Shown piece by piece: positions 31,544 through 64,000 of a DNA stretch of 64,000 bases; position 1 is the stretch's first letter, and each line of letters starts with the position of its first letter. A program made the position numbers and the translations under genes. This DNA comes from Bacteroidota bacterium (GTDB taxonomy: Bacteria; Bacteroidota; Ignavibacteria; UBA10030; UBA6906): NCBI GenBank assembly GCA_030835135.1, contig JAUQWO010000076.1, positions 77,102-141,101 of the forward strand. The letters are read 5' to 3'. The notes beneath the pieces were generated by a model. That model saw only the letters and a list, made by a program, of their open reading frames with translations. It was not told the DNA's origin and made no database searches.

Positions 31544-31637
31544 CGGTCCTCGCGACATGGTTCCTTTCAACCAGCGAAAAATCCGCGACAACTGCAAGCC
31601 GCATCCCTTCTTTGGAGGGAAATCGGTATATTCCCTC

Positions 31638-32546: not shown

Positions 32547-32556
32547 CCGGTGGTTG

Positions 32557-37727: not shown

Positions 37728-37736
37728 CCTTTAAAT

Positions 37737-37836: not shown

Positions 37837-37880
37837 GGCCATCCTTCTTCCACCCAGTTCCCCCACACCGAAAGGCTATC

Positions 37881-38429: not shown

Positions 38430-38453
38430 TCCGACCAGCAAAGGACTACGACC

Positions 38454-39374
38454 ATGCCGCTCCATAGCAGACATCTCCTGGGGCTCGACGGGATGCCGCG
38501 CGAGGACATCCAGCTCATCCTGGATACCGCCGTCAGCTTCCGCGAGGTCCTCGACCGACCCATCAAGAAGGTCCCCCCGTTGCAGGGCAAGACCGTCGCC
38601 AACATGTTCTTTGAGAATTCGACCCGGACACGCCTCTCGTTCGAGCTGGCGGAACGCCGGCTCTCGGCCGATGTCCTCGGCTTCGCCGCTTCGGGGAGCA
38701 GTGTGAGCAAAGGCGAGACACTCAAGGATACCGCGCGGAACATCGAGGCAATGAAGGTGGATATGGTGGTGATGCGCCACGCCGCCGCCGGTGCCACCGC
38801 GTACCTCTCGCGCATCATCGAAGCGAACGTCATCAACGCCGGTGACGGTTCCCACGAGCATCCGACGCAGGCGCTGCTCGACATGTTCACGATCCGCGAG
38901 AAACTCTCGCGGCTGCAGGACCTGCACGTCTGCATCGTGGGCGACATCGCCCACAGCCGCGTCGCGCGCTCGAACATCTTCGGGCTGAAGACGATGGGGG
39001 CGCGCGTGTCGGTGTGCGGACCCGCCACGATGATCCCGCGGGATGTGGAGAAACTCGGCGTCGAGGTCTATCACCACATCGACGACGTCCTCCCCACGGT
39101 CGATGCCGTGAATGTGCTGCGCATCCAGCTGGAGCGGGACGCCAGCCGGCTCTTCCCGTCGCTGCGCGAGTATCACAACTTCTACGGCATCACGCGCAAA
39201 CGTCTGGAGAAGGCGGGCCGCACGATCACGATCCTGCATCCCGGACCCATCAACCGCGACGTGGAGATCTCGGCGGATGTGGCCGACAGCGAACACTCGG
39301 TGATCCTCCAGCAGGTGCTCAATGGCGTCGCCATCCGCATGGCGGTGCTCTATCTGCTGTCCTCCAAGAACTGA
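38454..39374 (+). CDS. pyrB: aspartate carbamoyltransferase catalytic subunit
   Basis: STRTR carbamoyl-phosphate motif, HPxQ, HCLP-like region. Confidence 0.9.
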   Translation: MPLHSRHLLGLDGMPREDIQLILDTAVSFREVLDRPIKKVPPLQGKTVANMFFENSTRTRLSFELAERRLSADVLGFAASGSSVSKGETLKDTARNIEAMKVDMVVMRHAAAGATAYLSRIIEANVINAGDGSHEHPTQALLDMFTIREKLSRLQDLHVCIVGDIAHSRVARSNIFGLKTMGARVSVCGPATMIPRDVEKLGVEVYHHIDDVLPTVDAVNVLRIQLERDASRLFPSLREYHNFYGITRKRLEKAGRTITILHPGPINRDVEISADVADSEHSVILQQVLNGVAIRMAVLYLLSSKN

Positions 39375-39401
39375 ACTCCACCCACTGATGAGGTACTGAC
39401 C

Positions 39402-49717: not shown

Positions 49718-50494
49718 ATGTCGATGCCCTTCACCAGAATTGAACGTCCATCCACGCTGAGCCAGGAGATCGTGGACACGATCGAGGGCTCGATCCTGTC
49801 GCACGGGATCGGTCCCGGCCAGAAACTCCCGACGGAACAGGAACTCTGCAAGTCCTTCGCGGTCAGCCGGACGGTTGTGCGCGAGGCGCTCCGCATGCTG
49901 AGCGCCAAAGGACTTGTGAGTATCCGCAAGCGGACCGGCATCTTCGTGAATGAGCTGTCCTCGCGGGATGCGACGGCAGGTGTCGGGATGTATCTCGCCC
50001 TTCATTTCGACAGGGAGTACATCCTCCACGTCTTCAACGTCCGCCAGGCCGTCGAACCGACGGTCGCCCGATGGGCGGCCGCCAACCGGACCGCGGCGAA
50101 CATCTGGGCGATGGAGAAGCACCTGCTTGCGCTGGAGGATTGTGGGGAGGAAGACAGAACGACCGGGTACCGGCTGGACCAGGAGTTCCATCAGATGGTC
50201 GCCGATGCCACCCACAATCCCGTCGTCCCGTTGATGATGCAGCCTGTGTATGCACTGATCCCCCGCATCCGCGGACTGGTGCATGCCCACGCCCCGGAAG
50301 TGCGGGGATCGGAGGTCGAGGACTACCGGCGTATTCTGCAGGCGATACGGCAGCGGGATGAGGATGCCGCATATCACGAAATGCAGTTGCACATCAGCAA
50401 CGCCGCACAGCAGGCGAACGCGGTCGTGGATGTGCTGGATGCTGCCGCCGCCCGGGAGGTACAGGGCGCGGCCCCATCTCCCGGCACGGTGTAG
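49718..50494 (+). CDS. GntR family transcriptional regulator (FadR/FCD subfamily)
   Basis: N-terminal wHTH (LPTEQELCKSFAVSRTVVREAL). C-terminal FCD helical domain. Confidence 0.75.
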   Translation: MSMPFTRIERPSTLSQEIVDTIEGSILSHGIGPGQKLPTEQELCKSFAVSRTVVREALRMLSAKGLVSIRKRTGIFVNELSSRDATAGVGMYLALHFDREYILHVFNVRQAVEPTVARWAAANRTAANIWAMEKHLLALEDCGEEDRTTGYRLDQEFHQMVADATHNPVVPLMMQPVYALIPRIRGLVHAHAPEVRGSEVEDYRRILQAIRQRDEDAAYHEMQLHISNAAQQANAVVDVLDAAAAREVQGAAPSPGTV

Positions 50495-51707: not shown

Positions 51708-52850
51708 TCACTTCACTTCGAGCACATCGCGTTCAGGGAGCACCGGGAACGGTGCGTGGGGCTCGGTCTGATACCAGAACGCCACCGACGCGATGTCGTC
51801 CTGGAGCGGGAGATAGCGTCCGCCGGATCGCCATCCGAGCGCCTGGATCGTCACCCGCAGGTCCTTCTCGAACCGGATCGGGTCCATGATATGCCAGCGG
51901 TAGAGGCCGAACCGTTGCTGTGACTGATACAGCCCGTCGGGTCGGATGACCTGGGGAAGCCCGGCATACGCGGTCGTGAATTCCTGATACTGGTGGGTCT
52001 TCTGGTTCTCGAAGTTGTACGATCCACAGAAGTAATCCTCCGTGCCCGTCCCGCAAATGGTCGGGAACTCACCATCGCCATCCATGTAGAACTTGATCTC
52101 GCCTTCGCCCCACCACCCGGTGCTGTTCACACCCCAGGCCATGTACGTTCCGATGTACTGTCCCCAGCCCTTCACGCCATCGAGCAATGTATACACCGAT
52201 TTGTACGGGAGCGGATTCACACGGCGGAACTGGGCATGGAAGTACGCGGCATCGTTCGGCACGTCCGTGAGCGTGTAGTTCACCTGGTAGAATAATGTCA
52301 TCTCCTCGTCGGCGATGTTCTCGGCGGTGATCCGCGCGCGCTTCCGGAAAGGCATCTCCCAGTAGCAATTGAATGCGCTGCCGGGGTTCACGCAGATCGC
52401 GAGGGACGAGATCTGGGCGTAGTGTCCCCAGCCGCACGCGAAGAAATCGCCGATAGGGGCCTCGACGGAGGGCGTTTGTTCATCATCCCAGTAGATGCGG
52501 AGGATGGTGTACCGCCAGTTCCCCGTCGGGGTCATCCAGATCTGCTGGATCGCACCCTCGCCCTGAATGTCCGCCACCGTGAAGGTCTGCTTCGGTTTGA
52601 TGCGGACACACGGCGCGACCTTCCATGTCTTTCCCAGATCGCGGGCTGCCGTGGCGCCCGTCCCCTCCGTGGCCATGCCGCCTTTGCCCTTGTCCCCGTT
52701 GGGGTTCTCGGCACTGATCGACCGTGTCTTGGCGCGCGACAGGCGCGACAGGTTGCCCAGGTTCATCCCGAGCCCGTTGAACTGCTCTTGTGCGTTCATA
52801 CCATCTCCGATGATCATGAGGAGAGCGAGGATGACGACTGTTGATCGCAT
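51708..52850 (-). CDS. GH172 (DUF2961) family glycoside hydrolase
   Basis: Signal peptide MNA|Q. WGEGEIKFYMDGD...PTICGTGTEDYF conserved block of DUF2961. Confidence 0.6.
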   Translation of the reverse strand: MRSTVVILALLMIIGDGMNAQEQFNGLGMNLGNLSRLSRAKTRSISAENPNGDKGKGGMATEGTGATAARDLGKTWKVAPCVRIKPKQTFTVADIQGEGAIQQIWMTPTGNWRYTILRIYWDDEQTPSVEAPIGDFFACGWGHYAQISSLAICVNPGSAFNCYWEMPFRKRARITAENIADEEMTLFYQVNYTLTDVPNDAAYFHAQFRRVNPLPYKSVYTLLDGVKGWGQYIGTYMAWGVNSTGWWGEGEIKFYMDGDGEFPTICGTGTEDYFCGSYNFENQKTHQYQEFTTAYAGLPQVIRPDGLYQSQQRFGLYRWHIMDPIRFEKDLRVTIQALGWRSGGRYLPLQDDIASVAFWYQTEPHAPFPVLPERDVLEVK

Positions 52851-52861
52851 AGGGGACTCCT

Positions 52862-53794
52862 TCAGTTGGACAGCCACTCGCCACCGGTGGCGAGATTGTC
52901 TTTGGTGAAGACCCGTGAGCGCAGGGTGATCTCACGGGGGACCGCTGTGCCGGCGAGGATGAGCAGGGCGTTTTCGATCGCTTCCCGTCCGCCGGTGGGG
53001 TATTCGAAGGACGCCGCGAGGAGTCCCTGTTTCACATACATCTGCCCTTCGTGGGGAAGGGCGTCGATGCCGACGAACTTCATGGACTTCTCCCGTCCCG
53101 CGGCGCGTGCAGCAAGATAGGCGCCATGGGCACCGGGATCGTTGTGTGCGTACACGAGGTCGATGGCAGGGAAGCGGGCGAGTGCGGACTCCATCTCCCT
53201 GCGTGCGTTCGGTTCCAGCCATTTCATGTCCGCTTCGAAGATGATCTGCAGGCCCGATCCCTTGATGCCCTCGCGGAATCCGGCATTCCTGTCCTGACCC
53301 GGTGTCGAGGTCATCAGTCCCTTGAGTTCCACGATCGTTCCTTTGCCGCCGAGGAGCTTCGCGATCCACGCGCCCGCGGCGCGGCCGATGCGCTTGTTAT
53401 CGGCGCCGATGAAACAGGTGTAGTCGTTCCCGAGGACGCGTCGGTCCAGCACGATGACGGGGATGCCTTTCTTGAATGCGGCACGCACGGGCGGGGTCAG
53501 CGGCGCGGCTTCCTTGGGAGAGATGATGATGAGGTCGACGCCTGCGCGGACGAACTCATCGACGTGGGCACCCTGCCGAAGGTTATCGTTCTGGGCATCC
53601 TTGAAGATCACCGTGAGTTCCGGATGCGCATCGGCGGCCTTCTTGATGTCGGCATTCATCTGGACGCGCCATGGTTCGCCGAGGTTGCACTGGCTCATCC
53701 CGATCGTCCACCGGCGCTGTTGGCCTGATGCCGGGAGGGCGATGATCGTGGCCAGAAGCACCGTGAGAAGGATGAAGCGGTGGGGGTGTCTCAT
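52862..53794 (-). CDS. sugar ABC transporter substrate-binding protein (RbsB-like periplasmic binding protein)
   Basis: Signal peptide ASG|QQ. Type-I periplasmic binding protein (PBP) fold motifs. The ORF-track extension to 54013 runs through the repeat region and is spurious. Confidence 0.75.
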   Translation of the reverse strand: MRHPHRFILLTVLLATIIALPASGQQRRWTIGMSQCNLGEPWRVQMNADIKKAADAHPELTVIFKDAQNDNLRQGAHVDEFVRAGVDLIIISPKEAAPLTPPVRAAFKKGIPVIVLDRRVLGNDYTCFIGADNKRIGRAAGAWIAKLLGGKGTIVELKGLMTSTPGQDRNAGFREGIKGSGLQIIFEADMKWLEPNARREMESALARFPAIDLVYAHNDPGAHGAYLAARAAGREKSMKFVGIDALPHEGQMYVKQGLLAASFEYPTGGREAIENALLILAGTAVPREITLRSRVFTKDNLATGGEWLSN

Positions 53795-53908
53795 GTGGGT
53801 CTCCAGGGTGGTGGAATAGTTGCGCAGGTGCCGGGATGTGCACGCGCACATTGTCGATGCCCTGCATGGCCGGGGTGAATCCGCCCCGACACCGGACACG
53901 GGTTGATC

Positions 53909-53968
53909 ATGGAATGCATCCTGATGGAATGCATCGTGGTGGAATGCATCCTGATGGAATGCATCCTG
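53909..53968. repeat. 4 x 15-bp tandem direct repeat (ATGGAATGCATCCTG consensus)
   Basis: Units at 53909, 53924, 53939 and 53954, one or two mismatches each. Each unit contains the palindrome ATGCAT. Confidence 0.9.
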
Positions 53969-54020
53969 GCGGTCCCTTGCACCCGCGCCATGCCCGGTCG
54001 AATGTCTCTGCATTTGTAGG

Positions 54021-54038
54021 GGCGCAGCATGCTGCGCC
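54021..54038. terminator. 18-bp perfect palindrome GGCGCAGCATGCTGCGCC, 10 nt downstream of the permease stop
   Basis: Read directly. Hairpin or operator. No U-tract. Confidence 0.35.
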
Positions 54039-54047
54039 CTGGTATGG

Positions 54048-55019
54048 TCACCGGTTGCGCTGCAGCAGCACCGCGCCCAGGATGATCACGCCGGTGAGCA
54101 TCAGCCGCATCTCTTCGCCGACCGCATTGATGCTCAGGATCTTTTCCAGGTATCCGATGATGAGCACGCCGAGCAGCGTCAGCCAGATCGAACCGCGCCC
54201 ACCCTGCAGGCCGGTACCCCCGATCACGACCATGGCGATGGCACTGAGTTCGTAGGTCGATCCGGCTTCCGGATCGCCCTGGAGTTCCTGGGCCGCCTGA
54301 CAGATGCCGGCCACGGCACAGAAAAGTCCGCTGAGGCCATAGGCGAGGACCTTCGTCGCGCCCACCGGGATGCCGGCGTAGCGGGCTGCTTCTTCGTTCC
54401 CGCCGACCGCGAAGATCTGGCGGCCCCATGTGGTGCGGGCGAGGAGGATACCGCAGACGGCCATGGAGAGCAGCATGACAAGGGTCACGACCGCGATGTT
54501 GTCGCCGGCGATCCGCGCGCCGATCATATCGAACACCGGGGGGATCTCGACGTAGGAGTAGCTGCCATCCGGGATCTGGACCGCCGTCGAGATCTTCTGT
54601 CCACCGGAAATGAACTTCGCCAGGCCGCGCGCGAAGACCATCATGGCCAGCGTGGCGATGAATGGTTGGACGCGGAAGCGGGCGATCACGGACCCGGAGA
54701 CGACACCGCAGGCGGTCCCGAGCAGGAGGGTGAGGGCGATCGCAATGGCGGCGGGGAGGCCCTGGTGAATGGAGAGGAGCGAGAAGACGACGGCACAGGC
54801 GCCGAGGATGCTTCCGACCGACAGGTCGATCCCCCCGGCAATGATGACGAGGGTCATGCCACACGCAAGGATGCCGAACACCGAGACGCCGCGGAGCATA
54901 TCGCGGTGCGTGTCCCATTGAAAGAATGCGCCATCCGCATGGAAGAGCGCTCCTACCGCCAGCACGAGAGCCAGCGAGAGGAGCGCCCGTATCACCGGAT
55001 GGTTACTTGCCGACGCCAC
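54048..55019 (-). CDS. sugar ABC transporter permease (RbsC/branched-chain type)
   Basis: About 9 to 10 TM helices. Conserved permease loop. Confidence 0.8.
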   Translation of the reverse strand: MASASNHPVIRALLSLALVLAVGALFHADGAFFQWDTHRDMLRGVSVFGILACGMTLVIIAGGIDLSVGSILGACAVVFSLLSIHQGLPAAIAIALTLLLGTACGVVSGSVIARFRVQPFIATLAMMVFARGLAKFISGGQKISTAVQIPDGSYSYVEIPPVFDMIGARIAGDNIAVVTLVMLLSMAVCGILLARTTWGRQIFAVGGNEEAARYAGIPVGATKVLAYGLSGLFCAVAGICQAAQELQGDPEAGSTYELSAIAMVVIGGTGLQGGRGSIWLTLLGVLIIGYLEKILSINAVGEEMRLMLTGVIILGAVLLQRNR

Positions 55020-56604
55020 AGAAGTGTACTTTCAGCCCGAGCTCGCGCATGGCCGCTGCCTTGGCGAACATGGCCTTGCGTGCCCCGGCTGCATCGGGTG
55101 CGTACACGACCTGGATGTGGTTCGCCTTGTGCTTGGCCATCATCTGGTCACGTGAGACACCCTTCAGCACGGCGTGCATGATCGGCCACTGGGGTGTGGT
55201 CTGATTCCACCGGTCCCGGGTTTCTTCGAGCGGAAGCGACACCACCTCGCCGAGTCCGAGATCGCACTGCATGCGGTCGTCCTCGACATACACACGGCTC
55301 CACACGATGTGCCCCGGTTTGCTGATGCCTTTGACCGTCGATCCACCCAGCCGGAAGTACATCGGTGGCTGGCGCTCGCCCACTGAACCGGCAAAGCCAT
55401 CGACGAGGTGGGCGGGTGGCACGGCGCCGGAGATCTCCAGCACCCAGACGAATCCGCGGACGTCCCCGTCCTTGTAGGTCCGGCCCCACCGTACATCGTG
55501 CAGGGTGTTCTCCGGCGGATAGCCAAGCTCGCGCCAGAGGCCATAGGTGACAAGACCGTCGAACCCGGCGCATTCATCCACTTCATTGAAGTGGGGGAGC
55601 GCCTCGCCGGCGTACAGCACGGTGCCCGTTTTCTCATGGCGCACCGGCGGCCGGTCGGTGTTGTTCAGGAGTCCTTCGGCAAGATCGGATGCCGGTGCGA
55701 GATCCTTCAACCCCTGCTGATACTGAATGCCGATCGTGGAGCAGCCGAACTCATCGGCGATCCGCACCGCCGCGATGTACATCTTGCACTGCAACAGGAC
55801 CTGTGCTTCGGTCAGATCAGTGGCTTCATCCGGGCCGTAGGTGAACTTCATGCCCTTCGCCAGGATCCAATCGTAGACCTCGCGGGCTTCGGCGTCGGAG
55901 ACGGTCAGCATTTTTGCGTAGAGCGACGATTGACTCAGCCGTTCCTTGAAGACGCCTGCCGTAAAGAGGAGTTCATCCGGGATGATGGCGTTGTACATGC
56001 CCATGCATCCTTCATCGAAGATGCCCATGATCGCCTTCTTCTCGCGGAACGCCTTCGCGAACGAGACGCCGATCTTCTCGGCCTGGTCCGGGATGCGCGC
56101 TTCCTTATACGGAATGGCATGCGAGGTGTCGTGCTTCACTCTGCCCTTCTTCATCCACTGCGAAAGACCCTTGAGGAAGAACCTGTCTGTGAAGTCCTCG
56201 CTCCAGAGTGTGCTGTACTCCACCCCGGCCTTGGTCAGGGAGCCGTTCAAATTGAGCATGCCCACGAGACCCGGCCACTGGCCGCTCCAGTTCGCCACAG
56301 TGAGGATAGGACCCTTGTGCGTGATCAGGCCCGGCAGCACGTGATGCGTATACTGCCACACCGCTTCGGCCACAATGACAGGTGCTTTCGGGGGGATGGA
56401 GCGGAACACTTCCATGCCATATTTCTGGCTGTCGATGAAGCCGTGCTTTTTGACCGGATCGTACGCGTGAGCGCGTGTGACCGACCCGCCGAGTTTTTCG
56501 ACGGCAGCGATGACCTGCTGCTCCATCGCTGCCTGCGCAGCCTCGCATTTCTGGTTGGCGGAAGCACGCAGGTCGCCGCTGGCGACGAGGTAGATGGTTT
56601 TCAT
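55003..56604 (-). CDS. L-fucose isomerase family protein (FucI/AraA-like, COG2407)
   Basis: 533 aa. RBS GGAGA. N-terminal MKTIYLVASGD Rossmann-like domain of FucI-type isomerases. The ORF-track extension to 57234 is spurious. Confidence 0.65.
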   Translation of the reverse strand: MKTIYLVASGDLRASANQKCEAAQAAMEQQVIAAVEKLGGSVTRAHAYDPVKKHGFIDSQKYGMEVFRSIPPKAPVIVAEAVWQYTHHVLPGLITHKGPILTVANWSGQWPGLVGMLNLNGSLTKAGVEYSTLWSEDFTDRFFLKGLSQWMKKGRVKHDTSHAIPYKEARIPDQAEKIGVSFAKAFREKKAIMGIFDEGCMGMYNAIIPDELLFTAGVFKERLSQSSLYAKMLTVSDAEAREVYDWILAKGMKFTYGPDEATDLTEAQVLLQCKMYIAAVRIADEFGCSTIGIQYQQGLKDLAPASDLAEGLLNNTDRPPVRHEKTGTVLYAGEALPHFNEVDECAGFDGLVTYGLWRELGYPPENTLHDVRWGRTYKDGDVRGFVWVLEISGAVPPAHLVDGFAGSVGERQPPMYFRLGGSTVKGISKPGHIVWSRVYVEDDRMQCDLGLGEVVSLPLEETRDRWNQTTPQWPIMHAVLKGVSRDQMMAKHKANHIQVVYAPDAAGARKAMFAKAAAMRELGLKVHFCGVGK

Positions 56605-56642
56605 GGTTCCTTGATCTCCGGGGTGTTCGGCAGTATCCGTTG

Positions 56643-56658
56643 CAGGACCGGGGTCCTG
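56643..56658. promoter_or_regulatory. inverted repeat CAGGACC-GG-GGTCCTG in a divergent promoter region
   Basis: 7-2-7 palindrome between the FucI-like (-) and GHMP kinase (+) starts. Confidence 0.3.
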
Positions 56659-56784
56659 GCGTTCTGTTGGTTGGATTCGGGACGCAGTAGAGTCTGCGGA
56701 GAAAGTACGGAATTCTGGCCGGAAACTCAACTTGAACTTTGGGAATGCTCTGTCTACATTGCATGATACACTCACCTCGAGCTC

Positions 56785-57834
56785 TTGTCCATGAACAGCC
56801 GTACACCTTTGCGGGTCATCAATAGCGTCGCCCCTATCCGGATCGTCGACAACGGGGGGTGGACGGACACCTGGTTTGCCGGCCACGGGAGGATCTTCAA
56901 TATCGGGGTCTATCCGTATGCGGAGGTCCAGGTCGAGGTCTTTCCCGCGGATGGCACGCGCGAGCGGGTGATCATTCAGGCAGAGAATTACGGAGACCGG
57001 TACGCGATGGGGCCGGCGGGGCAGGCCTGGACGAAGCACCCCCTCCTCGAAGCGGCCATTCAGTACATGAAGGTGCCCGAGGAGCTGGCACTCGAGGTCA
57101 CGATCTTCTCGGAGGCACCGGCGGGTGCTTCCACCGGAACATCGGCAGCCGTGTCTGTTGCCTTGCTGGGCGCGCTGGACCGGCTGACGCCCGGGCACAT
57201 GACCCCGCATGAGGTTGCGATGGCAGCCCATCACGTGGAGATGAAGATGCTCGATCTTCAGTGCGGGATCCAGGACCAGCTTTGTTCAGCGTACGGCGGT
57301 ATCAATTATATCGAGATGCAGAAATTCCCGTGGGCCACGGTATCCCAGATCCAGGTCCCGAACAGTATCTGGTGGGAGCTCGAACGCCGCCTTGTCCTGA
57401 TCTTCCTCGGCCGCTCCCATGATTCCACCGACCTCCATAAGAAAGTGATCCGCGAACTGGAGAACGAGGGGCCCGACAGTCCGCGCCTCGAGGCCCTGCG
57501 CGGTACCGCGGGGTTGTCGCGGGATGCCGTGTATGCCGGCGACTTCACCGCGTTCGGCAATGCGATGATCGTGAATACCGAAGCCCAGTCACACCTGCAT
57601 CCGGCCCTCGTGAGTGCGGACGCCCTGAAGGTGATCGAGATCGCAAAGCGTCACGGCGCGATCGGATGGAAGGTGAACGGAGCGGGCGGGGCGGGCGGTT
57701 CGGTGACCCTTCTGGCCGGCGATCTGTCGAGCATGAAACGCAAGATGATCCGCGAGATCGAGGAGGCCGATCCACTGTTCCGGAACATTCCGCTGTATCT
57801 GAGCAGGTACGGCCTCCGGACTTGGGAGGCCTGA
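56785..57834 (+). CDS. GHMP family sugar kinase
   Basis: PAGASTGTSAAVSVALLGAL GHMP motif II. C-terminal GAGGAGGSVTLL motif III. Confidence 0.65.
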   Translation: MSMNSRTPLRVINSVAPIRIVDNGGWTDTWFAGHGRIFNIGVYPYAEVQVEVFPADGTRERVIIQAENYGDRYAMGPAGQAWTKHPLLEAAIQYMKVPEELALEVTIFSEAPAGASTGTSAAVSVALLGALDRLTPGHMTPHEVAMAAHHVEMKMLDLQCGIQDQLCSAYGGINYIEMQKFPWATVSQIQVPNSIWWELERRLVLIFLGRSHDSTDLHKKVIRELENEGPDSPRLEALRGTAGLSRDAVYAGDFTAFGNAMIVNTEAQSHLHPALVSADALKVIEIAKRHGAIGWKVNGAGGAGGSVTLLAGDLSSMKRKMIREIEEADPLFRNIPLYLSRYGLRTWEA

Positions 57835-57842
57835 CGCGCGCG

Positions 57843-58919
57843 ATGCTGACCTCGCTGCTTGCCGTGTCTGCCGTTGTGCCTTCCGCACTCCTCGTATGGT
57901 ACTTCCATGCCCGCGATGCGTATCCTGAACCTCCGCGGGTCCTGTGGACCACCTTCGGGCTCGGCGTGCTTACGGTGATCCCGATCCTGCTGATCGGCTA
58001 CCCGTTGCAGCACGCGGTGGAATTGGTGCCGAACCCCATCGCGTCGAGCCTCATCGGTGCGTTGTTCGTCGCCGCGATCCCCGAAGAGTTCGTGAAACTC
58101 CTGGTCCTTCTCGGCTACAATATGCGCCACCGCGCCTTCGACGAACCGATGGACGGCATCGTCTATGGTGTCGTCGCCTCCCTCGGCTTCGCGACACTGG
58201 AGAATCTCCTGTTCGTCTTCGGGGGAGGAATGAGCGTCGCCGTCTCGCGCGCGTTCACCGCCGTGCCGTTGCATGCCTTCGTGGGTGCGATCATGGGCTA
58301 CTACGTCGGGCAGGCATGGCGAATGCCCGGGGAGCGCACGCGCTATATCCTCCAGGGGTACGGATTCGCCGTGCTCCTGCACACGCTCTACGACTTCCCG
58401 CTGATGGCGATGGCTGACGTGGAGGATGTCAGGACGGTGTTCATCCTGGGTGTCTCCACGCTGATCGTCCTGTTCGTGTGCTGGATGTGGACACTCGGTC
58501 TCGTGCGGCGCCTCCGCAGGGACCAACTTGCCCATCCACCCGTGCCGGCGGTGGAGTCCGCGCCCACCGGGATCCGCGTGTTCGGTGAAGAGGATGATCC
58601 CGAACCCGTAGAGTCTTCCCCGGTTGCGCCGGGCGCAGCGGCCGCCACCCCGGCCTCCCCCCTGGAAATCCCGGAATCAGATGCCGCCCGTATGCGCAGA
58701 CGCATCACGGGGATCGTGGTCATCGTGGTGGGGGGCATCGTTGCGTCCTTCGGTGGGATGGTAACCCTGGGGCTGGCGCTGGCGTTCATGATCGGTGTGG
58801 TACGGCCCGAGCATGTCGTGGATGTCGCGATCGGGGGGATCGTGAGCGGTCTTGCACCGTTGGCGATCGGGGTGGTGGTATTCCGGGGAGGCGTGAAGCA
58901 CTTGAACCGGAGAAGCTGA
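57843..58919 (+). CDS. PrsW family intramembrane metalloprotease
   Basis: EEFVK (EExxK) and FxxxH-type motifs in a multi-TM core. Pro/Ala-rich C-terminal tail with 2 further TM helices. Confidence 0.6.
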   Translation: MLTSLLAVSAVVPSALLVWYFHARDAYPEPPRVLWTTFGLGVLTVIPILLIGYPLQHAVELVPNPIASSLIGALFVAAIPEEFVKLLVLLGYNMRHRAFDEPMDGIVYGVVASLGFATLENLLFVFGGGMSVAVSRAFTAVPLHAFVGAIMGYYVGQAWRMPGERTRYILQGYGFAVLLHTLYDFPLMAMADVEDVRTVFILGVSTLIVLFVCWMWTLGLVRRLRRDQLAHPPVPAVESAPTGIRVFGEEDDPEPVESSPVAPGAAAATPASPLEIPESDAARMRRRITGIVVIVVGGIVASFGGMVTLGLALAFMIGVVRPEHVVDVAIGGIVSGLAPLAIGVVVFRGGVKHLNRRS

Positions 58920-58971
58920 GGAACAGGGGGACGGGGAAGAACCACAAGGCAGAAGACCGAGGGCAAGAATT

Positions 58972-59008
58972 GTCAAAGGGCACAACAGACGCTGGTGTGC
59001 CCTTTGAC
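58972..59008. terminator. bidirectional hairpin terminator between convergent genes
   Basis: 13-bp perfect stem GTCAAAGGGCACA / TGTGCCCTTTGAC with an 11-nt loop. Confidence 0.55.
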
Positions 59009-59021
59009 ATTTGACGCCGGA

Positions 59022-60188
59022 TCATCCCCGTGGCTGGTATCGGCAGTTCCTCGCTTCCTCCGCGAACGCTTCCAGCAAAGGCGTCTTCGCGTCGAAGAAA
59101 TGATCGGACGGACAGAGGATGTACCCGCCGCCGGGACCCGCCGCCTCGAAACAGGCCCGCACCGCCGCGCGCGTTTCTTCGGGCGTGCTCTGCATGAAGT
59201 ACTCCTTCTGATCGAATCCGCCGATGAAACATACACGGTCGCCGATCCTGCGTTTCGCTTCGCGGAGATCGACATCCGCACCCATGCCGGGCGGCGTGAA
59301 CGTTTCCATCGCGTCGGGCTTCATGTCCGCCAACCGCTCCAGAAATGGCATCATCCCCCCGCAGGTGTGATACACGATGCGCTGCCCGGCCGCGTGTGCC
59401 CGTTCGATGAGGGGTGCGTCGTAGGGCGCAACGAACGCATCGAAGATCTTCGGCGAGATCACCGTGGAGGATGCATCGCCGCCGCCGAGTTCGGAGATGT
59501 CGATGTGTGCGCCCCGCATCGAATCGATGAAGACACCCTTCCGGTCCATCAGGATCTTCAGGAAGGCATGGACCCATTCCGGATCGTCATACGTCGCCAT
59601 GATCAGGTCTTCGATACCGTACAGCACAGAGGCGTCCTGCCAGCATCCCGGCTGACCGTAGACATCGAAGCAGATCACCGTCCCCCGGATCATGCCGCGC
59701 TCACCGTATGCCGCCGCCTTCGCATTCACGGCGGCCACGTCACATACCGGCTTGGTTGCGTATGCGGCGATGATGTCGATATCACTCTTTTCCTTGATGA
59801 GTCGCTCCGTCACCCATGACGTATAGTCGTTGCTCTGAAGAACGAGCGTCAGGTTCTTCTTCGGTGTGTGGAAGGTGTAGCGGACGGTCGTGTACTGCGG
59901 ATCGGGGATTTCCTCCGTCGTGATACGCCAGTTGTCGGACGCGATCCGCCTGGGTTCCAGATACCCGGGCCTGTGGTCCGGATCATAATAGTCACGGGTC
60001 CCCGGATCCGGTTTGTGATCGGAGACCCACTGGATAGGATCCATCCCGAACCGGTCAAAGAACGCATCATTCGATATGCCGTTCAGATACTTGTCCAGAT
60101 AGTACGGCATCACATGATGCGTGGTGACCGGCAGACGGTCGGGGACCTGCCGGTTGAGGACAGCGAGGAAACGTTGCTTGGATGTCAT
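59022..60188 (-). CDS. uroporphyrinogen decarboxylase (URO-D) family protein (MtaA/CmuA-like)
   Basis: Full-length URO-D TIM-barrel family similarity. The ORF-track N-terminus (60302) overlaps the next gene. Confidence 0.6.
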   Translation of the reverse strand: MTSKQRFLAVLNRQVPDRLPVTTHHVMPYYLDKYLNGISNDAFFDRFGMDPIQWVSDHKPDPGTRDYYDPDHRPGYLEPRRIASDNWRITTEEIPDPQYTTVRYTFHTPKKNLTLVLQSNDYTSWVTERLIKEKSDIDIIAAYATKPVCDVAAVNAKAAAYGERGMIRGTVICFDVYGQPGCWQDASVLYGIEDLIMATYDDPEWVHAFLKILMDRKGVFIDSMRGAHIDISELGGGDASSTVISPKIFDAFVAPYDAPLIERAHAAGQRIVYHTCGGMMPFLERLADMKPDAMETFTPPGMGADVDLREAKRRIGDRVCFIGGFDQKEYFMQSTPEETRAAVRACFEAAGPGGGYILCPSDHFFDAKTPLLEAFAEEARNCRYQPRG

Positions 60189-60730
60189 TGGTCGATCACC
60201 GGGATTCTCTTGATGGATGGGTCCGTGAAGATGTCGCTTTCGTCGTCGCTCGAGGATGAGAATTCCGAGACGACGGCTCCCCGGGGACCTGCCTGAAACC
60301 AATGCAGGGTATCCGGCTGGAGCGTGTGCTGCTGGCCGGGCGTGAGGACGATCTCATGCCAGACCGTGAACACGTCGCGTTTGCCCGCGGGAACCGTGGC
60401 CTTCGGCCGGCGCGTCGGCGGACCCGCGACATAGAGATAGACCGTGCCCCAGCGGCACCGGAACGTTTCGCGCTTCCCCGGACCTGCATCGCCACGGGGC
60501 GGATGACGGTGCTCGGGACACGTCTGTCCGGGGAACAGCACCAGTTCCTTTGCACAGTAGCGGTCATTGTTCTCGTAGACCACCAGTTCCAGTCCGATGT
60601 GCGCGATGTCGTTCAATCCGAAATCAGCGACCTCGATGTTCCGCGCTTCCCGCGGCGTGATGGGGAGATGCGCCTTCTTCAGGAACCCGAGGGCCCGCGT
60701 CCGGTGCTTGCGTACGTCGGCGAGTTTCAT
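60185..60730 (-). CDS. D-lyxose/D-mannose ketol-isomerase family cupin
   Basis: 181 aa. Cupin metal ligands (EHRH..., H, E). About the right length for D-lyxose isomerase. Confidence 0.55.
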   Translation of the reverse strand: MKLADVRKHRTRALGFLKKAHLPITPREARNIEVADFGLNDIAHIGLELVVYENNDRYCAKELVLFPGQTCPEHRHPPRGDAGPGKRETFRCRWGTVYLYVAGPPTRRPKATVPAGKRDVFTVWHEIVLTPGQQHTLQPDTLHWFQAGPRGAVVSEFSSSSDDESDIFTDPSIKRIPVIDQ

Positions 60731-60778
60731 AGTGATACTCCTTCGTTGAATTCGTTGCTTCCCGTATGACTCATGGCA

Positions 60779-62302
60779 TCATGCCGCAAGGCCCGACATC
60801 AGGCGGAGCAGCTGTTCCTGGTCTGTATCCCCGGCGCGCACCTCGCCCGCGATGCTGCCGGTCCGCATGACCAGGATGCGCGTCGCCAGCTGCAACAATT
60901 CGGGCAGTTCAGAAGAGATCAGCAGGATTCCCGCTCCCTGACGCGCGAGGTCCCTGATCGTTTCGTGCAGCGCGCTCTTTGCTCCGATATCCACCCCCCG
61001 CGTCGGTTCATCCAGGATGAGCATGCGGGCGCCACCGGCCAGCCACCGTGCGAGGACGATCTTCTGTTGATTGCCGCCGCTCAATTGTTCGACCGGCGTC
61101 TCAACGTCCGGGGCCTTGATGGCGAGTGCACGGAATGATCGGTCGAGCATGCACGTCTCCTTCGTCCTGTCGAGAAACAGGAGCCGCCGCAGTGAAGGCA
61201 GCAGCGGGAAGGAGTGGTTCATTCTGCACGAGAGCGCAAGGGCAAGCCCCTGTATCTTCCGGTCCTCCGGAACAAACCCCAGTCCTGCGGCGATCCGCTG
61301 GCGGGTGGAGAGTCCGGAGAGCGACCGCCCATCCAACCGGACATCACCGGTAGCCCGGGGATCGAGTCCCATGATCGCCGCAGCGAGGTCACTCCGCCCG
61401 GCACCAACGAGCCCTGCGATACCGACGATCTCTCCCGGGTGGACGGAGAAGTTCACCTCCTGAAACCGGCCATGAGAGGCCAGATCCCGGACGTCGAGGA
61501 GGGTATCGCCGGAGGCCGGTGCGGGATGGTGCGGAGAGACCGCAGCCAGCTCGCGTCCGATCATCATCGACACGATCCTCTGTTCGTTGGCCTCACCGCG
61601 TCCGAGCGAACCGATGCACCGTCCATCACGCAGCACCGTGACCGTATCGGCCAACGTGAAGACTTCGTTCATCCGGTGCGACACATACACGACCGTGACG
61701 CCCCGGTCGCGGAGACGTCTGATCAGCGCGAACAGGTGGCTGGTCTCCGCGTCAGAGAGCGAGCTGGTCGGTTCATCCAGGATCAGGATCGAAGCGCCCG
61801 TGCCCACGGCGCCCGCGATCTGGATCACCTGGCGCAGGGCGACCGGGAGGGTACCGAGGGTGACCCGGGGGTCGATCGAAGAACCCACATCCGCGAGCAT
61901 CGCCATTGCCCGTGATGTCATGCGTGCCGGATCGATGAACGGCGGTGCCAGAACGGGATACGCGCCGAGGCAGAGATTCTCCGCGACGCTGAGATCGGGG
62001 CAGAGCGCGAGTTCCTGGTGCACCATGGCGATCCCTGCACGCCGCGCCTCGCGTGGAGAGGCGAAGGCGGTGGGTGTCCCATCGAGAAGGACCGACCCGT
62101 GGTCCGGACGGAGGATGCCTGCGAGGATCTTGCCGAGCGTGGATTTTCCCGCACCGTTCTCACCCATGAGCGCATGGACCAGGCCGCGTTCGAGGGAGAA
62201 CGAGACGTCGTCCAGTGCCGTGGTGCCGCCGTAGGTCTTGCTGATGGAAGAAAATGCGATCACGTGTCCGCGGATGCTGATGGCTGTGAAAAAAGGTAGC
62301 AA
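60779..62302 (-). CDS. sugar ABC transporter ATP-binding protein (tandem ABC domains, RbsA/MglA-like)
   Basis: Two Walker A (GENGAGKST; GLVGAGRS), LSGG signatures and Walker B motifs. Confidence 0.85.
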   Translation of the reverse strand: MLPFFTAISIRGHVIAFSSISKTYGGTTALDDVSFSLERGLVHALMGENGAGKSTLGKILAGILRPDHGSVLLDGTPTAFASPREARRAGIAMVHQELALCPDLSVAENLCLGAYPVLAPPFIDPARMTSRAMAMLADVGSSIDPRVTLGTLPVALRQVIQIAGAVGTGASILILDEPTSSLSDAETSHLFALIRRLRDRGVTVVYVSHRMNEVFTLADTVTVLRDGRCIGSLGRGEANEQRIVSMMIGRELAAVSPHHPAPASGDTLLDVRDLASHGRFQEVNFSVHPGEIVGIAGLVGAGRSDLAAAIMGLDPRATGDVRLDGRSLSGLSTRQRIAAGLGFVPEDRKIQGLALALSCRMNHSFPLLPSLRRLLFLDRTKETCMLDRSFRALAIKAPDVETPVEQLSGGNQQKIVLARWLAGGARMLILDEPTRGVDIGAKSALHETIRDLARQGAGILLISSELPELLQLATRILVMRTGSIAGEVRAGDTDQEQLLRLMSGLAA

Positions 62303-62388: not shown

Positions 62389-64000
62389 ATGTGCCGTTTT
62401 CCAGCGCTCCATGTGCTCCTCACCATTTCATTACTGATGCTCTTCGCTGATGCCGGGGCACAAGTGCTTCCGTTGTCGAATCCCGGGTTCGAGCAAGGCA
62501 AGGATCGTGTGCCCTCGGGATGGTCCGGCGCGATGACCGGATCACGTACCGCGCCGGCATGGGATACCACCGTGGCACACGCAGGCCGGGGCAGCATCGC
62601 CATCGTCCACACGGAAGCAGGGAGCAGCACCGCTGTCTCCGGTCCGGTCGGCCTGACCGTGGGACATCTCTACCGGTTGTCGGTGTGGATTCGGACCTCC
62701 GGGGTGGAGGCTGATCCGATGTCCCGCTATCCGACCGCCCTCGCGGCGACCGCGACAATGGAGTCGTTCCCCTTCACCATGCATGCACCTTCGGTCGCCG
62801 GAACGCGTGAGTGGGATCGGGTGGAGATCCTGTTCTTTGCCACCCGTGCGACCGACAGGGTCATGCTGCGTCTCGGTCACAACGGAACGGCAACCGGGAC
62901 GGCATGGTTCGACGATGTCCGGGTCGAGGAGGTCAACGATATCGGCGCGTACATCCCTCCGGAGACCGTGCAGTGGTTCGGACCGGCGTTCCGGTACACG
63001 GACAAAGGGTGGATCAATGTGCACATCGAGGGGAAACCGTACGAGCGTGGCTATCAGTACGGCTCGTTGCTTGCACCGGAGATCGTGGCCTACATGGACA
63101 AACTTGCCGTGCGGCAGAACGGTGACAATCCGCGTGGAGGATGGAACGAACTGCGCACCCTGACCGATGCGCTCATGTTGCGTCAGTACGACCAGGAGTA
63201 TCTCGAGGAGATGCAGGGGATCGCGGACGGTGCGGCTGCTGCCAGCGCGAAGATCCATGGCCGGACCCTGAATCTTCTGGATATCGTGACCATCAATTCC
63301 GCGGTGGACCTCAGTCAGCTCGGGAGTGCGCTGACCGAGACCGCCCATCCACTCTCCGGCCGGAGCTTCCGGAAGGATGAGGAGGAAGCCCGCGCCGCGG
63401 AGCGTCTGCACAAATGCTCTTCCTTCCTTGCGAATGGGAACGCATCGCGCGATGGCAGGATCGTGTTCGGGCAGTTGTTCATGTGGAGCGGGTACACGGG
63501 CATCCATTGGGATGTCATTTGCGATGTGCAGCCGGCCCGGGGACACCGCCTGGTGTATCAGACGTTCCCCGGCGGGATCCATTCCGGTTCGGACTTCTAC
63601 ATCAACGATGCCGGTATCATGATCGGCGAGACCACGGTGATGCAGACGCCGTTCAACATCAAGGGCGAACCGCAATCTTCCCGGATCCGCAAAGCGGCCC
63701 AGTATGCGTCGAGCATCGATGATGTGGCGCGGATCCTGACCACGGGGAACAATGGCCTGTATACGAACGACTGGCTCATCGGCGACACGAAGACCGATGA
63801 GACCGCGATCCTGCTGCTCGGCACGGCGACCCATAAGCTCTGGAGGAGTTCGAAGAAGGATTTCCCCGGCGCAACCGATGGCTTCTACTGGAGCGTGAAC
63901 AACGCCAAGGATCCCGTGGTGCGGCGAGAATATATCCCCGACCCGTCCAATGCGCCGTTCGATGTGGTGTACGGCAACAGCAACCGTGACCTCGCCTTCT
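62389..64000 (+). CDS. secreted protein, 3' partial: CBM-like N-terminal domain plus Ntn-hydrolase (C45-like) domain?
   Basis: Not in the ORF track (no stop inside the window), but an ORF of more than 1.6 kb with window-typical GC3 codon bias. Signal peptide AGA|Q. An internal 'CSSF' follows a Gly-rich region, consistent with an autoproteolytic Ntn Cys. Confidence 0.4.
   Translation, partial: MCRFPALHVLLTISLLMLFADAGAQVLPLSNPGFEQGKDRVPSGWSGAMTGSRTAPAWDTTVAHAGRGSIAIVHTEAGSSTAVSGPVGLTVGHLYRLSVWIRTSGVEADPMSRYPTALAATATMESFPFTMHAPSVAGTREWDRVEILFFATRATDRVMLRLGHNGTATGTAWFDDVRVEEVNDIGAYIPPETVQWFGPAFRYTDKGWINVHIEGKPYERGYQYGSLLAPEIVAYMDKLAVRQNGDNPRGGWNELRTLTDALMLRQYDQEYLEEMQGIADGAAAASAKIHGRTLNLLDIVTINSAVDLSQLGSALTETAHPLSGRSFRKDEEEARAAERLHKCSSFLANGNASRDGRIVFGQLFMWSGYTGIHWDVICDVQPARGHRLVYQTFPGGIHSGSDFYINDAGIMIGETTVMQTPFNIKGEPQSSRIRKAAQYASSIDDVARILTTGNNGLYTNDWLIGDTKTDETAILLLGTATHKLWRSSKKDFPGATDGFYWSVNNAKDPVVRREYIPDPSNAPFDVVYGNSNRDLAF

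Follow-up and report, generated by a model that had tools for sequence, protein, structure and literature searches.

The window analysed here comprises 64,000 nucleotides of a Bacteroidota bacterium (GCA_030835135.1, contig JAUQWO010000076.1, positions 77,102 to 141,101) that GTDB places in Ignavibacteria; UBA10030; UBA6906, and that is termed Ignavibacteriota in this analysis. Each gene that an earlier, sequence-only reading had listed in the region 51708-62302 was recovered, and one gene absent from that list, encoding a PrsW intramembrane protease, lies amid them (Table 1). The protease is probably a bystander; an AI-2E_transport gene takes its place in one related locus (L169). Homology and structure prediction are the basis for the protein families, active sites, export signals and transporter type given below, and for the co-conservation of the genes.

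Table 1. Genes and noncoding features of the locus, in window positions.
Feature	Position	Strand	Length and basis
GH172, secreted exo-alpha-D-arabinofuranosidase (predicted)	51708..52850	-	380 aa, N-terminal signal peptide; DUF2961
Periplasmic sugar-binding protein (SBP), CUT2 (ribose-type) ABC importer	52862..53794	-	310 aa, signal peptide; Peripla_BP_4
15-bp x4 tandem repeat, permease-SBP spacer	53909..53968		TRF
CUT2 ABC permease	54048..55019	-	323 aa; BPD_transp_2
FucIL, remote FucI/AraA isomerase superfamily member	55003..56604	-	533 aa; fold search
Divergent intergenic region, FucIL operon / GHMP-PrsW operon	56605..56790		gene map
GHMP-family sugar kinase	56791..57834	+	347 aa; GHMP_kinases_N
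PrsW-family intramembrane protease	57843..58919	+	358 aa; PrsW-protease, 132 bits
URO-D/MtaA-family TIM-barrel protein (URO-D protein)	59022..60188	-	388 aa; URO-D
Small cupin, D-lyxose/D-mannose isomerase family	60185..60730	-	181 aa; Lyx_isomer
Two-domain CUT2 ABC ATPase	60779..62302	-	ABC_tran x2

The GH172 call, which had been made dependent on HMM thresholds, stands, as DUF2961 reaches 327.7 bits where 27 would suffice. The protein matches the crystallised exo-alpha-D-arabinofuranosidase ExoMA1 (8IC8) at E = 8e-131, with 57% identity over 348 aa, and matches alphaFFase1 far more weakly (E = 1.4e-37). The catalytic glutamates (E223, E225 and E245) are conserved, as is Asn253, a residue that leaves no room for the hydroxymethyl group of fructofuranose; the fructofuranoside-active alphaFFase1 needs Gly at this position (PMC10509167). 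The retained Asn253 should exclude fructofuranosides as the substrate, and on sequence grounds the enzyme is a member of the ExoMA1 exo-alpha-D-arabinofuranosidase clade.

The binding protein (Peripla_BP_4, 157 bits) has as its closest solved relative a fructose binder, not an arabinose binder, namely the fructose-sensing domain of BT1754 (2X7X; E = 5.7e-67, 47% identity), and ribose and galactofuranose binders rank next. Both proteins share the periplasmic binding fold, but BT1754 senses its ligand as part of a hybrid two-component system, whereas the window protein is a free ABC binding protein. Its identity to a fructofuranose sensor suggests a furanose-shaped pocket, and the GH172 and isomerase context points to D-arabinofuranose as the ligand. 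Orthologues 67-83% identical adjoin FucIL in L001, L006, L008, L017, L019 and L082. The permease (BPD_transp_2, 159.7 bits) is RbsC/AraH/YjfF-like and the ATPase AraG/XylG/YtfR-like (500 bits to AraG); each is the only one of its kind in the window, and the ATPase gene, always upstream of the cupin and URO-D genes in window-type loci, encodes the only candidate partner in the window for the permease and binding protein. The transporter parts match ribose, arabinose and galactofuranose systems, and the binding protein shares its fold with YtfQ and other CUT2 furanose binders. Judged by homology, the transporter is of the monosaccharide CUT2 type, with a binding protein resembling a furanose sensor.

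FucIL scores below the Pfam gathering cut-offs (26.7 versus 29.3 and 21.9 versus 28) and has no match in the PDB by sequence or profile. Its AF2 model (pLDDT 89.9) nevertheless has as its top Foldseek match 3A9R, the D-arabinose isomerase from B. pallidus (1e-19), with L-fucose and L-arabinose isomerases ranking next, and the FucI catalytic motifs E337, D361 and H528 correspond to the invariant E341, D370 and H496. The FucI-family assignment is thus upheld by the fold search, although it misses the Pfam cut-offs. As modelled, FucIL is a remote relative of FucI and D-arabinose isomerase, and we propose that it converts D-arabinose to D-ribulose. The E. coli L-fucose regulon (FucI-FucK-FucA), whose FucI is a Mn enzyme, serves D-arabinose use and offers a parallel in its FucI-fold aldose-ketose isomerisation and its recognisable Glu, Asp and His motifs. 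For FucIL, however, the identity in structure-based alignment is only 13-16%, below Pfam thresholds and hhalign significance; the window has neither FucK nor FucA, and loci of sister genomes carry 5-kinase-type pentulose kinases, in contrast to the 1-kinase plus aldolase route of E. coli. In most of the 80 genome loci, members of the FucIL family have no GH172 beside them and instead neighbour a class II aldolase (in 11 loci) and a rhamnulo/fuculokinase-like FGGY kinase. This counts against the D-arabinose assignment, as L-fucose isomerisation may be the main activity of the family.

Taken together, these assignments make it fairly probable that the locus scavenges D-arabinofuranosides and begins the catabolism of D-arabinose. 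The import and catabolism of a D-arabinofuranoside had been anticipated from the sequence, and the GH172 clade, CUT2 importer, FucI relative and co-conservation all agree with it. We infer the order of the pathway, the source glycan and the substrates of the binding protein and isomerase as follows. The secreted GH172 would free D-arabinofuranose in the periplasm from oligosaccharides tipped with alpha-D-Araf, for example those derived from the arabinan that mycolic-acid bacteria make or from further D-Araf glycans. The monosaccharide would then be brought in by the CUT2 importer, split between the FucIL operon (binding protein and permease) and the neighbouring operon of the cupin and URO-D protein (ATPase). 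The FucI-superfamily enzyme would yield D-ribulose, and a pentulose kinase a pentose-phosphate-pathway intermediate. In most sister genomes that kinase would be the product of the in-operon FGGY gene. In the window genome its gene would lie beyond the 64 kb, the GHMP kinase being the less likely candidate.

At least six related loci have the full layout (L001, L082, L118, L148 and L169, plus L083 with an 8-kb insertion), and FucIL occurs with GH172 in other lineages (L002, L079 and L168), joined by GH116 in two cases; the genes are thus kept together in relatives, and sub-modules recur elsewhere. To call the pathway non-canonical was an overstatement, since published D-arabinan loci (PMC10115798, PMC10509167) already pair GH172 with a fucose isomerase. 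The D-arabinan locus of Microbacterium arabinogalactanolyticum encodes ExoMA1 (GH172), ExoMA2 (GH116) and EndoMA1/2 (GH183); its isomerase and kinase have been proposed to convert D-arabinose to D-ribulose-5-P (PMC10509167). It shares with the window a GH172 exo-alpha-D-arabinofuranosidase with the same active-site residues, an ABC importer and the proposed isomerase-then-kinase logic, but the 64-kb window holds no endo-D-arabinanase (GH183 in Microbacterium) and no GH116, which counts against the D-arabinofuranoside reading, as nothing in the window would supply the oligosaccharides. Unlike ExoMA1, which lacks a signal sequence, the window GH172 is secreted, and the importer is of the monosaccharide CUT2 type, whereas oligosaccharide uptake was proposed for Microbacterium (PMC10509167); the cupin, URO-D protein and GHMP kinase are extra in the window. 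[quoted passage not shown] PUL42, a Bacteroidota PUL of SusCD type, includes endo-enzymes, whereas the window locus has an ABC importer and a single exo-enzyme.

The interesting part of the locus is the widespread URO-D protein with its coupled cupin. The two reading frames overlap by 4 nt, and the cupin gene lies directly upstream of the URO-D gene in 43 of 68 evaluable loci. The cupin (Lyx_isomer, 35.8 bits versus 20.8) matches the solved D-lyxose isomerases of Thermofilum (7NZO, E = 3e-72) and B. subtilis (YdaE, 2Y0O, 3e-59) and retains their His-His-Glu-His metal site (H74, H76, E88 and H143). It differs from these small enzymes in its coupling to a URO-D-family protein and its linkage to GH172 or GH116, neither of which was found for characterised D-lyxose isomerases in the literature searched. 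The URO-D protein (URO-D, 86.6 bits versus 23.9) shares its TIM-barrel fold with uroporphyrinogen decarboxylases and MtaA/MT2-type methylcobamide methyltransferases, the only structure matches of its AF2 model (pLDDT 87.7) being UROD and MtaA. Its invariant H274 and C276 align to the HxC zinc motif of MtaA, but the two proteins are only 13% identical, conservation does not extend to the third zinc Cys, and a beta-sheet insertion at about residues 52-128 sets it apart from the MtaA/UROD family.

These features leave room for a second, tentative reading, in which FucIL, permease, binding protein and GH172 serve D-arabinose while the cupin and URO-D protein, possibly with the GHMP kinase, handle a different or modified pentose. 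This second sugar could be of D-lyxose type or methylated and released from the same glycans, so that the two gene sets would have nothing in common but regulation and the transporter ATPase. The nearest relatives of the cupin are specific for D-lyxose, which counts against the D-arabinose reading, as the route from D-arabinose does not pass through D-lyxose. Of the 39 loci that hold the pair and span at least 10 kb, only 4 contain FucIL, and in another lineage genes for a corrinoid protein, a MetH-type reactivation domain and a ribokinase are packed into one operon with the pair, a further likeness to MtaA alongside the kept zinc motif. None of these three partners is encoded in the 64-kb window, however. 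Unlike MtaA and uroporphyrinogen decarboxylases, the URO-D protein is regularly coupled to a sugar-isomerase cupin and found close to glycosidases. The operon of the pair also supplies the sole ATPase for the permease of the FucIL operon, which argues for one co-regulated system, and the pair repeatedly adjoins GH172, the predicted D-arabinose-releasing enzyme (GH172 or GH116 in 13 of the 39 loci, in three architectures). On the main reading, the translationally coupled cupin and Zn-type MtaA-like protein belong genetically to the D-arabinose system.

No pentulose kinase is encoded within the 64 kb, a point against the proposed D-arabinose route. It had been suggested that the GHMP kinase acts instead of an FGGY kinase, in which case it would phosphorylate D-ribulose or D-arabinose. 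We regard this as unlikely. An FGGY kinase is absent from the locus in the window and in L001, every window-type locus has the GHMP gene in its place opposite the FucIL operon and transcribed away from it, even where PrsW gives way to the AI-2E transporter, and the protein is distantly related to fucokinase-type GHMP kinases. Yet its best PDB matches are WcbL/HddA-type anomeric sugar kinases (2e-21; 71.8 bits on the HddA equivalog versus a cut-off of 600), and its nearest solved relatives phosphorylate heptose phosphates at the anomeric position. The position is kept in window-type loci but not elsewhere, and the family, about 70% identical across phyla, has unrelated gene neighbourhoods in Chloroflexota, Latescibacterota and another contig. 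Because four of the six complete sister loci hold both an in-operon FGGY kinase and the GHMP kinase, the two are not alternatives, and the suggested replacement is unsupported. The sister enzymes are a TIGR01315 pentulose kinase (L082 and L118; 616 bits versus 408.7), XylB (L148; 581 versus 380) and an FGGY kinase (L169), all of them pentose/pentulose (or xylulose) kinases and none a fructokinase. In L006 and L008, neither kinase lies near the retained core of FucIL, permease, binding protein and GH172.

It is improbable that the locus serves alpha-D-fructofuranosides, difructose dianhydride or fructose through an alphaFFase1-like GH172, fructose import and a fructose/mannose-interconverting cupin. 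The resemblance of the binding protein to the fructose sensor BT1754 (PMC3404733), the membership of alphaFFase1 in GH172 and the mannose isomerases among Lyx_isomer cupins are consistent with such a route. Against it stand the far closer ExoMA1 match and the Asn where alphaFFase1 needs Gly, and the pentulose/xylulose kinases of the sister loci; a FucI-type aldose isomerase would also have no role on a ketose. The use of L-fucose or L-galactose, with FucIL as the L-fucose isomerase that it probably is in loci of the PVC group and Bacteroidota, is very improbable here even though FucIL elsewhere has the aldolase and kinase neighbours named above and planctomycete fucoidan PULs carry a fucose isomerase, aldolase, kinase, GH116 and GH172 (PMC11685898), as the window lacks a fucosidase, aldolase and fuculokinase, its sole glycosidase is of the ExoMA1 D-arabinofuranosidase type, its binding protein belongs with the furanose binders and the sister loci have pentulose kinases.

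As previously noted, the region contains no LacI/AraC regulator; a GntR/FadR-type regulator gene lies 1.2 kb outside it (49718-50494) and is missing from L001. The idea that repeats substitute as control sites found no support. The tandem repeat (unit CAGGATGCATTCCAT on the - strand; TRF score 106), with 4 matches of its core in the window versus 0.46 expected by chance, is absent from all relatives fetched, and the permease-SBP spacer that holds it shrinks from 253 bp in the window to 73 bp in L001 and to 18 bp in L082. The repeat is probably lineage-specific. The divergent arrangement of FucIL and GHMP is kept in L001, L082, L083, L091, L118 and L169, and in L148 and L169 the FGGY gene lies between the two.

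Scavenging of D-arabinofuranosides is the best-supported explanation of this locus and, in our judgment, a probable one, given the clade of its GH172 glycosidase, its importer class, the fold of its isomerase and the co-conservation of these genes. The sequence-only reading, which had guessed at such a substrate, holds to this extent. The locus comprises three transcription units, whose coordinates are listed in the table together with those of the other features discussed here. Genes of unit 1 overlap or nearly abut, except that 253 bp separate the permease gene from that of the binding protein. Unit 2 is transcribed divergently from unit 1, and the cupin and URO-D genes of unit 3 overlap by 4 nt. 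The gene list first drawn up was correct, with the PrsW gene of unit 2 alone unlisted. Genes sampled elsewhere in the window have housekeeping functions (SecA, UvrC, DacB, M1 peptidase, GlmS, and PdxB), and the 90%-identity clusters of six window proteins also contain proteins from one Ignavibacteriota MAG (MBK72571xx).

Coordinates of the three transcription units at 51708-62302 and of other features mentioned in the text (window positions unless prefixed with the name of a related locus)
Feature	Unit or type	Coordinates	Strand
FucIL, FucI/AraA-superfamily protein	unit 1	56604→55003	-
Permease, CUT2-type (predicted)	unit 1	55019→54048	-
Binding protein (SBP)	unit 1	53794→52862	-
GH172 glycosidase	unit 1	52850→51708	-
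GHMP kinase	unit 2	56791→57834	+
PrsW protease	unit 2	57843→58919	+
ABC ATPase	unit 3	62302→60779	-
Lyx_isomer cupin	unit 3	60730→60185	-
URO-D-family protein (UROD*)	unit 3	60188→59022	-
15-bp repeat array		53909-53968	
GntR/FadR-type regulator		49718-50494	+
Phospholip_B ORF, off window end		62389-64000	+
Long ORF		7605-10442	-
Long ORF		12891-16175	-
Long ORF		30804-32654	-
Long ORF		37731-39407	-
Operon ending in cupin-UROD*	corrinoid type	L098:6913-11164	
Operon ending in cupin-UROD*	corrinoid type	L103:6918-11155	
Operon ending in cupin-UROD*	corrinoid type	L107:4381-8602	
Longer GH172		L126:4286-6247	
Longer GH172		L125:1317-3278	
Longer GH172		L147:7767-9893	
GH2-like malectin protein		L107:14409-18014	

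The GH172 call passes its HMM threshold by a wide margin, with PF11175 (DUF2961) matching over the full-length profile at 327.7 bits versus a cut-off of 27. The protein aligns with ExoMA1, the exo-alpha-D-arabinofuranosidase of Microbacterium arabinogalactanolyticum (8IC8), at E = 8e-131 and 57% identity across 348 residues, and more weakly (1.4e-37) with the difructose-dianhydride enzyme alphaFFase1. ExoMA1 has been shown to be specific for alpha-D-arabinofuranosides, with the side chain of Asn253 blocking the hydroxymethyl group of fructofuranose, a position at which alphaFFase1 has Gly (PMC10509167). The catalytic glutamates E223, E225, and E245 of 8IC8, like N253, are identical in the window enzyme, with Glu conserved in both the GEGE and the TED motif. 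By sequence, the enzyme belongs to the ExoMA1-type exo-alpha-D-arabinofuranosidase clade, and this is its predicted activity. ExoMA1 has no signal peptide, whereas one can be read at the N terminus of the window GH172, in which homology to ExoMA1 begins at residue 31. Its place of action should thus be the periplasm or the outside of the cell. Neither an endo-D-arabinanase (GH183/DUF4185) among the locus genes and ten large ORFs nor GH116 among the locus genes was detected, and GH116 seeds gave no match across the 64-kb window. A complete D-arabinan PUL of the Microbacterium/Dysgonomonas type, with GH183 and GH116 beside GH172, is thus not what this locus encodes.

The Peripla_BP_4 binding protein, the BPD_transp_2 permease, and the fused double ABC ATPase all exceed their Pfam cut-offs and are predicted to form an importer of the ribose-type (CUT2) monosaccharide class. 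Their best NCBIfam relatives are RbsB/YtfQ, RbsC/AraH, and AraG/XylG/YtfR, all scoring below the equivalog cut-offs for any named sugar. The unit 3 ATPase is the sole CUT2 ATPase in the 64 kb, where permease and binding protein likewise occur once each; units 1 and 3 are therefore tied via the transporter. The binding protein is 47% identical to the fructose-sensing domain of BT1754 (2X7X), and its next matches are ribose and galactofuranose binders. D-Fructofuranose is D-arabinofuranose with one additional hydroxymethyl group at the anomeric carbon, the same group that separates the two characterised GH172 activities. Because the two sugars differ by this group only, a fructofuranose-like pocket would fit D-arabinofuranose; by the same token, fructose is a rival ligand. 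For the locus as a whole, use of difructose dianhydrides or other fructofuranosides would agree with the BT1754-like binding protein but not with Asn253 of the GH172 or with the pentulose kinases of sister loci, and its probability is low.

Isomerisation of the imported D-arabinose would fall to FucIL. This protein scores below the Pfam gathering cut-offs (26.7 versus 29.3 for Fucose_iso_C; 21.9 versus 28 for Fucose_iso_N1), has no NCBIfam match and no PDB match, whether searched as a sequence or as a profile of 24 sequences, and does not align significantly with E. coli FucI in hhalign (E = 0.07, probability 0.8%). With nothing significant from sequence, profile, and hhalign searches, it is fold and motifs that tie FucIL to the family. 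All 41 Foldseek matches of the FucIL AF2 model (pLDDT 89.9, pTM 0.90) at E <= 0.001 are D-arabinose, L-fucose, or L-arabinose isomerases; Bacillus pallidus D-arabinose isomerase (3A9R; 1e-19, TM about 0.5) ranks first, followed by L-fucose isomerases and then L-arabinose isomerases, at 9-16% identity. Glu337, Asp361, and His528 of E. coli FucI, which we take to be catalytic and Mn-binding, pair with E341, D370, and H496 of FucIL in local motifs only (ATE337NDS/FNE341VDE, FAD361VRTYW/LHD370VRWG, and GANH528G/KANH496I), and the three FucIL residues are invariant among 24 homologues. The model places FucIL, as a predicted isomerase with the three-domain FucI fold, on a remote branch of the FucI/AraA superfamily. 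The family is very large and very conserved, with at least 8,000 matches and members from several phyla at 64-76% identity. Most of the 80 genome loci inspected pair FucIL with other partners, such as class II aldolase (11 loci) and FGGY kinases (10 loci), and its partners in Bacteroidota are SSF and a DapA-like protein. Given these partners, and given that an aldolase and a kinase accompany the fucose isomerase of planctomycete fucoidan loci (PMC11685898), the family overall may serve as L-fucose/D-arabinose isomerases, like canonical FucI.

The expected co-conservation of these genes is borne out by related loci from other genomes and metagenome contigs. The complete layout recurs in L001, L082, L118, L148, and L169 and, with an 8-kb insertion, in L083, and part of it in L091 and L119; FucIL identity in these window-type loci goes down to about 74%. 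Two other Ignavibacteriota (L006 and L008) have FucIL-permease-SBP-GH172 alone. Beyond this layout, FucIL adjoins the same type of binding protein in Opitutaceae (L017 and L019) and shares a locus with GH116 and GH172 in another Ignavibacteriota MAG (L002) and an Acidobacteriaceae MAG (L079), and with GH172 in a KSB1 MAG (L168).

Sister loci also bear on the phosphorylation step, for which a GHMP kinase had been proposed to act instead of an FGGY kinase. Such replacement is unlikely, as the two co-occur: four of the six complete sister loci have an FGGY kinase within the FucIL operon, at two positions and of differing types (TIGR01315 pentulose kinase in L082 and L118, 616 bits versus a cut-off of 408.7; XylB in L148, 581 versus 380; a 519-aa FGGY kinase in L169), and all four have the GHMP kinase as well. 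The window and L001 contain no FGGY kinase, and neither kinase is found near the genes in L006 and L008. The GHMP protein passes GHMP_kinases_N (44.9 versus 22.3) and scores far below the equivalogs for HddA (71.8 versus 600) and mevalonate kinase (68.7 versus 403), its nearest solved relatives being WcbL/HddA-type anomeric kinases. Its family is about 70% identical across phyla and occurs among unrelated genes in Chloroflexota, in Latescibacterota, and on another contig. Since sister loci hold both kinases and the family has unrelated contexts elsewhere, the GHMP kinase is not established as an FGGY substitute. Within the clade, its position beside the FucIL operon is stable even where PrsW is swapped for another gene; given this stability, an accessory role is possible. 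All kinases found in these loci are of pentose- or pentulose-kinase types (pentulose kinase, xylulokinase, or, in other architectures, ribokinase), in keeping with a D-pentose substrate. A different GHMP kinase accompanies FucIL in Bryobacterales and other Acidobacteriota (L040, L065, L066, L068, and L076), where the genes after FucIL encode a Gfo/Idh/MocA oxidoreductase and a homoserine kinase (ThrB equivalog, 248 bits versus a cut-off of 168).

No LacI/AraC regulator was found at the locus, in agreement with the sequence-only reading, which had looked to tandem repeats as control sites in its place. The array is real, with the 15-bp unit CAGGATGCATTCCAT repeated four times, an ATGCAT palindrome in every copy, and a GC-rich hairpin behind it. 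It sits in the permease-SBP spacer, which is unusually long compared with the 18-73 bp of relatives, and its motif is absent from all relatives fetched, being unique to the window genome among those loci. We reject an operator function because the motif is missing from relatives and their spacers are far shorter. Scans for sigma-70 promoters and terminators gave counts near the shuffled expectation. The sole regulator near the locus is a GntR/FadR-type protein, with NanR, LldR, and UxuR as its nearest named families, encoded ahead of pdxB and converging on the GH172 gene; it was considered as the missing regulator and left unassigned, as it is not kept beside the locus in L001.

The cupin of unit 3, closely related to two characterised D-lyxose isomerases (7NZO, E = 3e-72; 2Y0O, E = 3e-59), exceeds the PF07385 (Lyx_isomer) cut-off (35.8 versus 20.8) and has H74, H76, E88, and H143, presumably the His-His-Glu-His metal ligands; it is a predicted member of the D-lyxose/D-mannose isomerase family. 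In UROD*, the His-x-Cys motif has an invariant His274 and Cys276 that align with the MtaA zinc ligands; conservation does not extend to the third Cys. Uroporphyrinogen decarboxylases and MtaA are the only matches of the UROD* model (pLDDT 87.7), which contains an extra beta-sheet insertion. More than 4,700 family members were detected, at about 65-90% identity. Of the 82 loci surveyed, 80 were metagenome loci found via UROD* and the other two were L082 and L083. The cupin gene immediately precedes UROD* in 43 of the 68 evaluable loci, and GH172 or GH116 occurs inside the locus in a third of those of at least 10 kb (13/39). Clearly, the cupin-UROD* pair belongs with GH172/GH116 furanosidases. 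At least three architectures exist: the window type (ATPase-cupin-UROD*, GHMP kinase on the opposite strand, and FucIL-permease-SBP-GH172); a corrinoid type, in which a corrinoid protein, a MetH-type reactivation domain, ribokinase, cupin, and UROD* form a tight operon; and a divergent type, with a 653-aa GH172 divergent from cupin-UROD*-PhyH and GalT, GH127-like, and ribokinase genes nearby.

Corrinoid-type operons, seen in another lineage of metagenome contigs in L098, L103, and L107 (also L088, L093, and L159), have cupin-UROD* last and specify a B12-binding plus B12-binding_2 corrinoid protein and a Met_synt_B12 reactivation-like protein. Their flanks encode GH116, GH78-like, GH3, GH38, and GH172 proteins, two more URO-D paralogues, and a homocysteine S-methyltransferase. 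The whole resembles a MetH-like system for methyl transfer, split into separate genes and set inside a locus for glycan degradation. A corrinoid protein shares the UROD* operon in 13 other loci. Across the 64-kb window there is no corrinoid protein, B12-reactivation domain, ribokinase, or homocysteine methyltransferase, nor GH78-like, GH3, GH38, or GalT. Longer GH172s (653-708 aa), with a DUF2961 part about 60% identical to the window enzyme, are directly divergent from cupin-UROD* in L126 and L125 and from UROD* alone in L147, with PhyH dioxygenase, GalT, GH127-like, and ribokinase genes nearby.

The translationally coupled cupin and UROD* could be a widespread two-enzyme module for a rare or modified pentose that GH172, GH116, and GH127-like furanosidases set free. 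Because one lineage unites the pair with a corrinoid protein, a MetH-type domain, and ribokinase in a single operon, with further URO-D paralogues and a homocysteine S-methyltransferase next to it, the module might act by corrinoid-dependent demethylation of a methylated sugar, ahead of isomerisation and phosphorylation. We regard this reading as a whole as improbable. Alternatively, the pair may provide a new route from D-arabinose to D-ribose. To our knowledge, corrinoid-dependent demethylation is not a known reaction type for carbohydrates; literature searches returned no paper linking URO-D with lyxose isomerase and nothing relevant on corrinoids and methylated sugars. The 5-methylthio-D-xylose of LAM and the lyxose or O-methyl sugars of mycobacterial glycolipids are no more than speculative candidate substrates of cupin-UROD*.

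Published work on Dysgonomonas gadei and Microbacterium describes GH172 D-arabinofuranosidases and links them with a kinase and a fucose isomerase in the catabolism of D-arabinose (PMC10115798, PMC10509167). The window locus differs from these systems in having no endo-arabinanases or GH116, in exporting its GH172 and using a monosaccharide CUT2 importer, in its remote FucI-superfamily branch and cupin-UROD* pair, and in its occurrence in Ignavibacteriota. Mycobacteria and related bacteria have D-arabinofuranose as a signature sugar of their cell walls. Enzymes that release it were, as far as we know, not identified until 2021-2023, when they were described from Actinomycetota and a single gut species of Bacteroidota. 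The locus suggests that D-arabinose is harvested by free-living Ignavibacteriota as well, and shared modules may extend this capacity to KSB1, Acidobacteriota, and other environmental bacteria; what they use appears to be a minimal "clip, import, isomerise" kit. The locus also gives a testable substrate to three large families without a characterised member, i.e., FucIL, UROD*, and the conserved GHMP kinase. Carbohydrate catabolism would gain a new reaction if UROD* turned out to be a sugar-directed methyltransferase or an enzyme that converts pentoses in a new way. The main weight lies in the widely conserved FucIL and cupin-UROD* families, which are repeatedly linked to D-arabinofuranosidase families.

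Other features of the window and of related loci merit mention. Four long minus-strand ORFs of 558-1094 aa match no Pfam family, and their third-position GC (0.55-0.66) is below that of genes with confirmed status; each could be a shadow ORF of an opposite-strand gene or encode a novel protein. Divergent from the ABC ATPase, an ORF of at least 537 aa encodes a signal peptide and Phospholip_B (41.4 bits versus a cut-off of 27). In L001, L082, L083, and L118, ATPase-cupin-UROD* has a homologue of 978-1083 aa upstream, separated from it by an SSF or GalT gene; this conserved neighbour may be part of the system. Finally, a GH2-like protein of about 1,200 aa with a malectin domain is encoded near FucIL in Pedobacter and Hymenobacter (L031, L033, L037, L038, L039, and L048), in PULs with SusC/D, AraC, SSF, and DapA-like genes. 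A GH2-like malectin protein also lies beside cupin-UROD* in L107, where it is Pfam-confirmed, the Bacteroidota counterpart being labelled by eye. This recurrence hints that the FucIL and cupin-UROD* families target one complex glycan.
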